Part shown: positions 51,648 to 53,375 of the stretch, in pieces
Position numbering within the stretch: the stretch's first letter is position 1
Layout of the letters: every line of letters starts with the position of its first letter
From: Escherichia coli
GTDB taxonomy: Bacteria > Pseudomonadota > Gammaproteobacteria > Enterobacterales > Enterobacteriaceae
Assembly (NCBI RefSeq): GCF_016026235.1
Contig: NZ_CP065613.1
Direction: 5' to 3' (one strand)
Length of the DNA: 64,000 nt
The notes under the pieces: model-generated
Told to the model about the DNA's origin: nothing
The model's database searches: none
Seen by the model: the letters and a program-made list of their open reading frames with translations, nothing else
Program-made: the position numbers and the translations under genes

Positions 51648-52271
51648 TTAAAATTCGAATTGTCTCGCCCGAAGGCTTTTCAGCATTGGTTTTGCCCGTT
51701 CGAAAAGGGCGCTTGCTTGGTCAAGTCGTGTCGCCTCCCTTAGCAGTACATCTCTGTTTTTCGTCACCGTGTAAAAAGTTTCAAACGCGATGTCATACAG
51801 CTTGCTCGTGTATGATGAGTTCAGTTCCTTCAATATCGGGTACAGACGTTTGCAGATGTCCTGCGCATTCTCCATCTGTACCTGCATATAGCAAAGGAGG
51901 ATGATTTCTTCGTCTGTGAATTGCTGCGCTGGTTGCATGCTGCGAAGTTTCTTTTCGCACTCGATGAAGTATCGGCGTATCTGGCGGCCTTTTTCGTTAC
52001 GCTCGACCATCGCCGTTTCTTTGGCTGTATCGAGGGTGAGGTGATAGTCTTTGCTACGGCGATCGCCTCCACGTCCTTTGATCCCCCTGTTTTGGTGAAC
52101 CAAAATGTAATCGACATCAACGGCAAAGCCGTATTCTGTTATGCGATTTTTAATCCATGTAGAGAAGTCACGACGTACTTCCAAAAATTCGTGTAAATCA
52201 CGGGCATTAACGAGAAGAGTTGTTTCGTTGGATATAGTGCCGTTGAATACGGGGATGAGTTGACTGGTCAT
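51648..52271 (-). CDS. AntA/AntB-type antirepressor-domain protein
   Basis: 207 aa; motifs DYHLTLDTAKETAMVERNEKGRQIRRYFIECEK recalled as AntA-domain signature. Confidence 0.55.
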   Translation of the reverse strand: MTSQLIPVFNGTISNETTLLVNARDLHEFLEVRRDFSTWIKNRITEYGFAVDVDYILVHQNRGIKGRGGDRRSKDYHLTLDTAKETAMVERNEKGRQIRRYFIECEKKLRSMQPAQQFTDEEIILLCYMQVQMENAQDICKRLYPILKELNSSYTSKLYDIAFETFYTVTKNRDVLLREATRLDQASALFERAKPMLKSLRARQFEF

Positions 52272-52417
52272 TTTTATGTCCTTTGCATTTGTTCAGATAG
52301 CCCTGTGTTCAGCAGGGCGGTCAGGTACTTGAACACCGTGCAAAGTCGGCCCGTATCCTTAACCTTTCGGCTGTTTTTCGGTATACGCGCTACCCGACCA
52401 TATCTGAAAAATGGACA

Positions 52418-52446
52418 TAAAAAATCCGCATGACTGACGGGTGCGG
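52418..52446 (-). terminator. Intrinsic terminator (minus strand)
   Basis: Hairpin ccgca...tgcgg preceded on plus strand by a 7-A run (U-run on minus transcript). Confidence 0.4.
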
Positions 52447-52592
52447 TTTCCGCTTTGCAAGGTGTGTTCAGCACCATGAAGCGGAATATAGCCCCGTTAA
52501 TGCGGTGTTGTCAAATCATGTAGGCCTTATCTTGCTGTAAGCCGCGCCATTCGGGCTTTTCCCCACATTTGGGGAAAACTATCTTGTCAAAA

Positions 52593-53375
52593 TCATGCAG
52601 CCTTTCGCCCTCCTTCGATGAGTTCCTCTATTTTGTGCACTCCAGCCTCGTTGTACCGAAATGTTTCAACCTGCTTGTCATTGTGCGCCGATTTGTCGAT
52701 GAACCACTTCCCGTACTTTTCTGTTTTGAGCATGTAGGTGTTGGCTATGCGTCCTACCTTGTTGGCTGAAATACCGTAGCGCTGGCCGACTTCCGTAGCA
52801 GAGTAGTAGTGCTCTGAGATAGCTGGCAGAGGTACAACATCGCGACCAACAATCGGGTTGAACACTCCAGCTACTGCTGCCTGCTTTGATTCTGAGGACA
52901 GATTCGGGAACATATTCACCAGTCGATCCGCCACGTTCAAAGCTATTTCCATGGTTCGCGCACGGTCTAGGCTACTTTCTGGTTGCGGTACTGGTTGAGG
53001 ATGGTTGGCAACCTTTTCGCGCTGATTGAAGTAGCCGTCCTCCAGTTTTTCGAACACGTCCCATGCCTGATCCGTTTCGAGCATCTTCGCGTGACGGGCG
53101 GCTCCGCGCTCTGTCCAGAGGATGAGGTGGCGTGCATTTGGGGCAATTTTCACAAAGTAGTTTAAAGCTACTTTGTGTTTTAGCGCGCGCAGCTCGTCAC
53201 CAACGACCTTGTAGAAGTGTACCCCCTCAACAAAGCGCGACTTGTTTTCATGATGGTTTTGCCGGATGCGCACAACATCCGTTCCGTACAACTGCGCCAA
53301 TAGTTCGCTGGTGATGACGTTGGTTTGTTTGTAGGTGATTGGTGAAAGTGTTTCAACAGAAATTTGAGCATTCAT
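52593..53375 (-). CDS. Phage regulatory/antirepressor-like protein (ORF6N/KilA-N-type, tentative)
   Basis: 260 aa ORF in b-region. Confidence 0.45.
   Translation of the reverse strand: MNAQISVETLSPITYKQTNVITSELLAQLYGTDVVRIRQNHHENKSRFVEGVHFYKVVGDELRALKHKVALNYFVKIAPNARHLILWTERGAARHAKMLETDQAWDVFEKLEDGYFNQREKVANHPQPVPQPESSLDRARTMEIALNVADRLVNMFPNLSSESKQAAVAGVFNPIVGRDVVPLPAISEHYYSATEVGQRYGISANKVGRIANTYMLKTEKYGKWFIDKSAHNDKQVETFRYNEAGVHKIEELIEGGRKAA

Follow-up and report, generated by a model that had tools for sequence, protein, structure and literature searches.

A putative antisense RNA control module of the sRNA-Xcc1 family upstream of an AntA-type antirepressor gene in an Escherichia coli prophage

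We describe here a candidate RNA control module in a lambda-like prophage of Escherichia coli. It lies in a stretch of 64,000 nucleotides of contig NZ_CP065613.1, called the window below and numbered from its first letter, and it occupies the spacer at 52272-52592 between two genes of antirepressor type, one with an AntA domain (antA) and the other with an ORF6N domain. Its parts are all on the minus strand: a promoter, a short leader RNA with a first target site (a1b1) and a weak terminator, a structured small RNA (sRNA) with two antisense segments (a' and b'), and a second target site (a2b2) at the translation start of antA. The spacer is very probably a control module for antA of the c4/CI type, that is, one based on a processed antisense RNA, and there is good reason to think that the sRNA, at 52399-52311, represses AntA translation by pairing with a2b2. 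We consider the module to be a real feature, with a mechanism that is well supported by comparative evidence. A preliminary description of this part of the window had recognised a minus-strand terminator and several copies of a gtgttcag/ctgaacac motif in the spacer. Both are there, but it missed the embedded structured RNA, and the roles that it gave to the terminator and the motif have to be revised.

The spacer encodes an sRNA-Xcc1 RNA

The Rfam covariance model for sRNA-Xcc1 (RF02221) matches the spacer along its full length (model positions 1-87 of 87), with 68.3 bits against a gathering threshold of 53 (E = 1.6e-12 to 3e-10), and by this score the window RNA is a member of the family. Its fold has three helices, a closing stem being placed round two hairpins, of which hairpin 2 has four non-canonical pairs in the window. 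Compensatory pairs are found in the closing stem (10-11 bp), in hairpin 1 and in hairpin 2, within ungapped groups of 15, 11 and 7 homologues; ungapped length classes were used instead of a MAFFT alignment with RNAalifold of all 83 RNAs, which was misaligned and lost the closing stem. The two antisense segments are unpaired both in the consensus and in the centroid fold. They are exact complements of the target motifs: b' (CUUUGC) of GCAAAG, and a' (GUGUUCA) of UGAACAC. Directly after the sRNA there is a further hairpin with an extra a-type site in its loop, and an equivalent hairpin with a cognate a-site is present in some of the related loci described below (L001, L003, L048, L053 and L057).

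The leader and its terminator

A consensus scan of 51300-53700 found a single promoter-like site, the strong sigma-70 promoter listed in Table 1, and an identical promoter sequence is retained in loci L001, L003 and L062. Transcription would start at about 52478/52477. From there the order is a GGUG-CUGAACA-CACC hairpin, UU-GCAAAG, the weak terminator, a short spacer and the structured RNA; in other words, a promoter-proximal a1b1 and then an intrinsic terminator stand upstream of the antisense RNA, which is the arrangement of a c4-type leader. By analogy, the leader appears to be the functional equivalent of IsrK and c4-a1b1.

The terminator hairpin and U-tract that the preliminary description placed at 52446-52418 were confirmed. 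The loop is of 11 nt and the stem is followed by the tail A-U6-A; the consensus terminator scan has a loop limit of 8 nt and hence missed it. We take it to be real though weak, because its stem covaries among homologous loci (CCGCA/UGCGG, AUCAC/GUGAU, CCACA/UGUGG). Rather than dividing two units, as had been proposed, it ends a short leader RNA within the AntA unit, the far end of which is closed by the strong terminator that directly follows the AntA stop codon (51642-51623).

The leader order recurs across loci (a1, b1, GCGG, a 5-bp stem with a conserved loop, U6-8), and the leader alone is 82-87% conserved in phages 2851, phi191, P13374 and Aaphi23. The placing of a1 in the loop of a hairpin is a feature of the window and its close relatives; as a general rule it was rejected, being found in 19 of 74 loci by a strict test for a loop flanked by 4 bp. 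An antiterminator formed by GCGG and CCGC in the leader was likewise discarded, GCGG being kept where the terminator arm becomes UCAC. It is worth adding that conservation of the terminator loop CCCG(U/A)CAG (52434-52441, minus strand) extends from E. coli as far as Aggregatibacter phages, in a stem that covaries. No pairing partner or function was found for this loop in the leaders of L001-L120, and a candidate pairing with the 5' arm of the sRNA closing stem showed no covariation by inspection.

Target sites at the start of antA

At the start of antA the minus strand reads CUGAACA-AAU-GCAAAG-GA-CAUAAAA-AUG. The segments a' and b' are thus complementary to both a1b1 and a2b2, which are on the same strand as the RNA, and b2 overlaps the ribosome-binding site, as in the c4 functional class.

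This accounts for the repeated motif. On the plus strand GTGTTCAG is found at 52305 and 52464, TGTTCAG also at 52290, and the reverse TGAACAC at 52330; the motif search thus found the copies described earlier. As a repeat in its own right, the 8-mer GTGTTCAG was rejected, since its 4 occurrences across the window compare with an expectation of 2.0 and are equalled or exceeded in 14 of 100 shuffles. It is the composite a-b motif that is significant: in the 64 kb, where 0.12 matches would be expected, TGAACA-N(1-8)-GCAAAG is found three times, each time within 52281-52470, a number that none of 100 shuffles reaches. Two of these are on the transcribed strand and the third, its complement, is the RNA itself. 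The gtgttcag/ctgaacac copies are the antisense segment of an RNA (a', b') together with the target sites of that RNA, and not repeated protein-binding motifs. They are no set of operator-like repeats, an idea that was implicit in the preliminary description. The duplex predicted between a1b1 and the antisense segment has an energy of -31.8 kcal/mol, which none of 500 shuffles equals.

A second complementarity was seen in the same region, in which the U-tail and the following AUGUCC (52410-52423) can pair over 14 nt (93% complementary) with the antA Shine-Dalgarno sequence and start codon, GGACAUAAAAAUG (52271-52284). In the predicted fold this helix encloses the sRNA, and it is common to an enterobacterial subgroup of loci (L001, L028, L057, L065 and L116). 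As a general feature it was rejected, the comparison of cognate with non-cognate pairs being weak overall (p = 0.02), and it may be a clade-specific long-range helix.

Table 1. Features of the candidate RNA module, the adjoining genes and the surrounding prophage in the window
Feature	Position	Strand	Remarks
Sigma-70 promoter, TTGACA-18 nt-TATATT	52485..52514	minus	11/12 consensus matches
Leader RNA, ~60 nt	52418..52478	minus	a1b1 target, then weak intrinsic terminator
a1, CUGAACAC	52471-52464	minus	Loop of GGUG/CACC hairpin
b1, GCAAAG	52458-52453	minus	Leader
Weak leader terminator	Stem 52446-52442 / 52430-52426; U-tract 52424-52419	minus	Stem CCGCA/UGCGG
Structured small RNA, ~85 nt, sRNA-Xcc1 (RF02221)	52311..52399	minus	Rfam covariance model; c4-like architecture
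sRNA closing stem	52399-52391 / 52327-52319	minus	
b', CUUUGC	52345-52340	minus	Loop of hairpin 2
a', GUGUUCA	52336-52330	minus	3' junction
sRNA 3' tail, GCCC	52318-52315	minus	
Hairpin GCCCUG-CUGAACA-CAGGGC	52300..52318	minus	Directly after sRNA; extra a-type site 52312-52305 in loop
Target a2b2	52279..52296	minus	Over AntA translation start region
a2, CUGAACA	52296-52290	minus	
b2, GCAAAG	52286-52281	minus	Overlaps Shine-Dalgarno AAGGA (52283-52279)
antA start codon, AUG	52271-52269	minus	
AntA / P22_AR_C antirepressor-type gene, 207 aa	52271-51648	minus	Putative regulated gene of the RNA module
Strong intrinsic terminator	51623..51642	minus	Closes AntA unit, upstream of xis; 8-bp stem, tetraloop, T-rich tail
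ORF6N-type antirepressor-like gene, 260 aa	53375-52593	minus	Adjoins RNA-controlled unit
Early-left arm and immunity region of lambda-like prophage	50297-61558		Early-left arm and repressor gene on minus strand
int	51367-50297	minus	
xis	51563-51345	minus	
DUF551 gene	54030-53500	minus	
Ea22-like gene	54606-54103	minus	
DUF1317 gene	54889-54725	minus	
exo, bet, gam			Listed between DUF1317 gene and cIII thermosensor RNA
cIII thermosensor RNA	57009-56951	minus	Rfam
N	58170-57787	minus	
CI-like repressor, HTH and peptidase-S24	60814-60077	minus	
cII	61259-61558	plus	

Covariation of the RNA and its targets across loci

The same module is found in phage P13374 (L001), Aggregatibacter phage Aaphi23 (L002) and phiSTEC1589-Stx1c (L003), in each case with an sRNA-Xcc1 match of 69-86 bits directly upstream of an antirepressor or Rha gene. 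When these loci and the window are compared by eye, compensatory changes in a and b are seen to go in step at all three places (Table 2).

Table 2. Target motifs (a, b) and antisense segments (a', b') in the window and three related loci
Locus	a	a'	b	b'
Window	CUGAACA	GUGUUCA	GCAAAG	CUUUGC
L003	as in window	as in window	AUACAAG	CUUGUAU
L001	CUCAAAA	UUUUGAG	CAAGUAG	CUACUUG
L002	UCGAAA	UUUCGA	CAAACAG	CUGUUUG

For a statistical comparison, viral contigs were scanned with a pattern for the conserved core of hairpin 1. This gave 120 stretches, of which 93 loci with 76 distinct antisense segments were left when chance matches in coding sequence had been removed. The pairing score of an antisense segment with a flank was the total length of their two best blocks of exact complementarity. 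Over the 76 antisense segments, the upstream flank scores 13.8 with its cognate segment and 10.3 with non-cognate ones (Mann-Whitney p = 2e-36), and the downstream flank 13.1 and 9.5 (p = 2e-39).

The position of the downstream target is also conserved. There are 7-11 nt between the end of b2 and the ATG in 56 of 72 related loci, a triplet resembling a Shine-Dalgarno sequence (GGA, GAG or AGG) is found at the end of b2 in 58 of the 72, and a2 is ahead of b2 in 59 of 69. In 50 of 76 loci the closing stem, which is acceptor-like, runs into a tail of the form N-CC, with C at both +2 and +3. In the 66 loci that were scanned for it, the first downstream gene encodes P22_AR_C (16), Bro-N (16), P22_AR_N (14), Rha (7), KilA-N (7), AntA (6), ORF6C (6) or ORF6N (4) domains, and judged by these matches almost all of the cargo genes belong to the antirepressor domain superfamily.

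Of 5,426 complete E. coli genomes, 126 have the module, 113 of them with a query coverage of at least 80%, and it occurs at about 96.5% identity in many Stx2a-converting phages. In E. coli FDAARGOS_943 the spacer is 100% identical to that of the window. The module has largely escaped annotation: no annotated feature lies under the match in the 8 genome records listed among the 126 E. coli matches, nor in most of the listed records of Stx2a-converting phages, and the few annotated phage records name only the flanking antirepressor genes or hypothetical proteins. In P13374, a coding sequence for a 48-aa anti-repressor, 'antB2' (L001, 1588-1734), overlaps the sRNA-Xcc1 match at 1623-1706, and is probably an open reading frame mis-called over the RNA gene. 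The 24B_1 'microRNA' and d_ant system of phage Phi24B was considered and set aside, being an unrelated system at a different locus near lom. Locus L064 carries two sRNA-Xcc1 modules 243 nt apart (7042-7309), the first with no downstream open reading frame. The pair resembles the five tandem sRNA-Xcc1 copies of a Xylella genomic island (PMC12189769).

Proposed mechanism and alternatives

In the mechanism that we propose, the minus-strand promoter (52514-52485) would be constitutive and start a transcript that in most cases ends at the weak terminator after about 60 nt, giving a short leader RNA with a1b1. Transcripts that read through would hold the three-helix sRNA-Xcc1-family RNA of about 85 nt, which is presumably excised, its 5' end presumably being made by RNase P as for P1 c4. 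Hartmann et al. are said to have found in 1995 that c4 precursors are RNase P substrates, and the N-CC tail of the sRNA resembles the 3' RCCA motif of such substrates, which would fit an sRNA cut from read-through transcripts. The segments b', in the loop of hairpin 2, and a', in the 3' junction, would pair with a2 and b2 ahead of antA, and this pairing would block AntA translation because b2 overlaps the Shine-Dalgarno sequence; it may secondarily bring premature loss of the transcript. The antirepressor would stay off in the lysogen, and also on an incoming phage with the same a/b 'barcode'. The leader a1b1 is most likely to be a competitor or decoy, or else a co-transcriptional sensor, that sets the level of free antisense RNA. 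We favour a competitor because the a1b1 duplex is the stronger of the two (-31.8 against -20.8 kcal/mol). In this scheme repression, RNase P processing and the decoy role of the leader are drawn by analogy from P1/P7, P4, N15 and IsrK.

Several points weigh against this interpretation. The sign of the regulation cannot be read from the sequence alone, and what we can offer for the window locus is comparative throughout. The predicted duplex of the sRNA with the AntA start region is modest, 33 of 500 shuffles being as good as its -20.8 kcal/mol. The minimum free energy fold of the isolated window RNA departs from the consensus fold, which is recovered when the flanks are included. Finally, there is no match to C4 (RF01695) within 52250-52600, even at E <= 10, nor does the leader match isrK (RF01394) or c4-a1b1 (RF03163) in the same interval and at the same cut-off; the same search method recovers a true C4 at 4647-4560, with 75.7 bits. 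Because these three models are unmatched, what the module shares with c4 is architecture only, and homology is not established.

The alternatives differ in what they make of the same sites. If the repeated motif were a set of DNA operator sites, a repressor protein would control the AntA gene transcriptionally. Several copies of the motif do cluster round a promoter, and antirepressor genes of other phages are under repressor-protein control, Lemire et al. having reportedly described LexA control of Gifsy antirepressors in 2011. However, all the copies are downstream of the -10 and inside the transcript, so that both promoter hexamers, the -35 and the -10, are free of them; the sites lack palindromic symmetry; two copies are on the transcribed strand and the sole complementary copy is in an unpaired part of a structured RNA; and the sites covary with the RNA loops in 76 loci, for which a protein operator has no need. 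We regard operators as improbable in the extreme. Hardly better placed, and very unlikely, is a model in which the RNA acts chiefly in trans on host genes, as has been proposed in Xanthomonas and Xylella, and the local complementarity is incidental. The literature does treat sRNA-Xcc1 as trans-acting and virulence-linked, but the three-way covariation with flanking sites extends over 76 specificities, antisense segments as variable as these are incompatible with a conserved host target, and the composite motif is found nowhere else in the 64 kb.

The other two alternatives keep the RNA and its local targets and change the step at which they act. The sRNA could act mainly by premature transcription termination, in the style of P4 CI and N15 CA, with pairing to a1b1 on the nascent leader enforcing the terminator and shutting off both sRNA synthesis and antA. 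The a1b1 site is immediately upstream of the terminator in nearly all loci, and systems of similar structure, IsrK/C4-like, have been attributed to P4 and N15 (PMC3632133). We nevertheless think this rather unlikely, since the displaceable GCGG/CCGC antiterminator lacks covariation support and b2 is on the Shine-Dalgarno sequence in 58 of 72 loci, which indicates that the conserved step is one of translational control. A tentative possibility, somewhat stronger than the last though we would still bet against it, is an activator switch like that of IsrK, in which the read-through mRNA is silenced intramolecularly and the short leader RNA opens it in trans under stress. The silencing would come from pairing in cis of the sRNA segment with a2b2, of the U-tail and AUGUCC with GGACAUAAAA, or of both. 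Such a mechanism has been shown experimentally for the isrK-orf45-anrP locus (PMC4825925), the window leader has the weak terminator that it requires, a1b1 pairs with the antisense segment more strongly than a2b2 does, and, when the flanks are folded too, a helix closes round the sRNA and buries the Shine-Dalgarno sequence and AUG of AntA. That flank helix is, however, clade-specific, and its cognate and non-cognate pairs differ only at p = 0.02. The activator switch is largely compatible with repression of AntA by the sRNA, as the other side of the same circuit.

Relationship to known systems

The c4 antisense RNA of P1/P7 (RF01695, with c4-a1b1 as RF03163) blocks antirepressor synthesis, and the architecture of P1 immI/c4 is the background to the present comparison. 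As in the window, the operon under control has the RNA in its leader, with two short unpaired antisense segments a' and b', and there is one matching site on each side of the RNA, a1b1 upstream and a2b2 downstream, b2 falling on a ribosome-binding site. Both RNAs are built of a closing stem with two hairpins and end in a 3' NCC tail; in both the cargo is an antirepressor, and the specificity varies between phages (heteroimmunity). The window RNA differs in having a shorter closing stem (9-11 bp against 17 bp) and a different, longer hairpin 1. Its target is the antirepressor's own Shine-Dalgarno sequence and not that of an upstream coupled open reading frame such as icd, and it is carried by a lambdoid prophage whose repressor is of the CI/S24 type.

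P4 CI RNA with seqA and seqC, and N15 CA RNA, are likewise processed small RNAs with complementary sites up- and downstream of their own gene. P4 CI and N15 CA act by premature transcription termination, whereas what is conserved in the window module is that the Shine-Dalgarno sequence is occluded. N15 uses its processed small RNA to control an antirepressor operon, and the IsrK/C4-type systems of P4, N15 and lambdoid Salmonella prophages are structurally related (PMC3632133). The isrK-orf45-anrP locus of Salmonella Gifsy-1 resembles the window in its promoter-proximal short RNA ending at a leaky intrinsic terminator, and in a read-through mRNA for an antirepressor-like protein, the translation of which depends on pairing with leader sequence. 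There the IsrK leader, with partial read-through of its terminator, activates anrP translation in trans (PMC4825925). The window leader falls outside the isrK model and has no coupled open reading frame like orf45, and in place of the published activation by a short RNA we propose repression by an embedded RNA. In P22, sar is a small RNA that also blocks translation of an antirepressor mRNA, that of ant; it is a cis-antisense transcript of the opposite strand, whereas a single strand carries both the window RNA and its targets.

A further system of this kind is found within the window. An isrK match (4748-4672, 57.6 bits) and the C4 match mentioned above (4647-4560, 75.7 bits), both on the minus strand, are upstream of a Rha-family gene at 4535-3951(-). 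They follow the same a/b logic as the AntA module with different sites, UUGCUAC and UGACUAC. Because the sites differ, the window appears to carry two RNA-controlled antirepressor-type cassettes of different specificity. In L001 and L003, isrK and C4 modules are directly upstream of the sRNA-Xcc1 modules.

By covariance-model score, the window RNA is of the same family as the sRNA-Xcc1 of Xanthomonas campestris integron cassettes, a stable 88-nt RNA with mapped ends (PMC2996969). That RNA has been described as trans-acting, controlled by HrpG/HrpX and linked to virulence, with no mechanism given; in integron cassettes it is upstream of symE, which is potentially toxic, 'suggesting a divergent regulatory mechanism'. 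A paper on APSE phages notes only its position upstream of an ORF6N protein. We found no c4-like a/b targets and no link to antirepressors reported for sRNA-Xcc1 in the literature searched, outside which lie the 2011 sRNA-Xcc1 paper and the original c4 papers.

It is an evenly balanced question whether sRNA-Xcc1-family RNAs as a whole form another lineage of processed immunity RNAs of the c4/CI type, distinct from the first in structure. If they do, each copy would have a private two-part barcode, of which there are at least 76 variants, and two sites to match it: a decoy in a leaky-terminated leader, and an operator-like one at the ribosome-binding site of its cargo, a toxic or regulatory gene. 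The cargo would be a KilA-N, Bro-N, AntA, ORF6N or Rha antirepressor in phages, and possibly symE in integron cassettes. With the leader as an anti-antisense decoy, this would make a tunable toggle built only of RNA, and provide RNA-based heteroimmunity among co-resident prophages; the co-varying specificities do suggest such heteroimmunity and cross-talk. The proposal offers an explanation for the silence of a constitutively transcribed antirepressor in a prophage that is lambda-like and CI-repressed, and would assign a mechanism to an Rfam family described in the searched literature as trans-acting or of unknown function. Antirepressor control in Stx2a-converting phages bears on the induction of Shiga-toxin phages, and the dozens of co-varying specificities could serve as a natural library of orthogonal RNA-RNA pairs.

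The AntA and ORF6N genes

The domain searches bore out the earlier assignment of both proteins as antirepressor-type. The AntA-gene protein matches Pfam AntA (PF08346; 2e-26, 92.8 bits against a gathering cut-off of 27), P22_AR_C (PF10548; 1.2e-09, 38.6 bits against 22.4) and PHROG 377 'anti-repressor Ant' (4e-90), and from this family annotation it would be expected to bind and inactivate a phage repressor. The 260-aa protein matches ORF6N (PF10543; 7e-20, 71.5 bits against 27.8) and PHROG 1726 'anti-repressor' (4e-91).

The two genes had been taken as one independently regulated unit. This holds for the AntA gene, which has its own promoter and its own terminator, but not for the two as a joint cluster. 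No promoter was found upstream of the ORF6N gene in the scan of 51300-53700, and the Rfam scan gave no RNA family match in 53376-53500. That the sRNA also targets the ORF6N gene was considered, the look-alikes CUGAAC and UGCAAAAG being present in the 5' region of that gene. This was rejected, the duplex predicted with its translation start region being at the level of shuffled sequences (308 of 500 as good); the look-alikes also sit off the Shine-Dalgarno sequence, which counts against the idea. Because it has neither a promoter, an RNA module nor a predicted target of its own, the ORF6N gene is not under common control with AntA; it adjoins the RNA-controlled unit but is outside it, and is probably expressed only from pL read-through.

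Directly past the ORF6N stop codon there is a perfect 9-bp palindromic hairpin, UUUUCCCCA/UGGGGAAAA, at 52557-52578. Many Stx2 phages and one Lambdavirus record have the segment 52584-52502 as a separate block, about 95% conserved, which suggests a recombination junction.

Prophage context

The module is in the early-left arm of the prophage (Table 1). The preliminary description had called this the b-region, which is wrong on gene order and the lambda map: the stretch from xis to exo is the distal pL (ea-type) region, which we take from the lambda map to be separate from lambda's b region. On the right, an IS110-family transposase gene, 62063-63259(-), is inserted just beyond cII and the start of an O-like HTH gene, and the insertion may have disrupted the replication region of the prophage. 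Elsewhere in the window, a sok antitoxin RNA (117 bits) and four clustered tRNA genes, at 10522-10697(+) and 13053-13360(+), apparently belong to a second prophage-like region.

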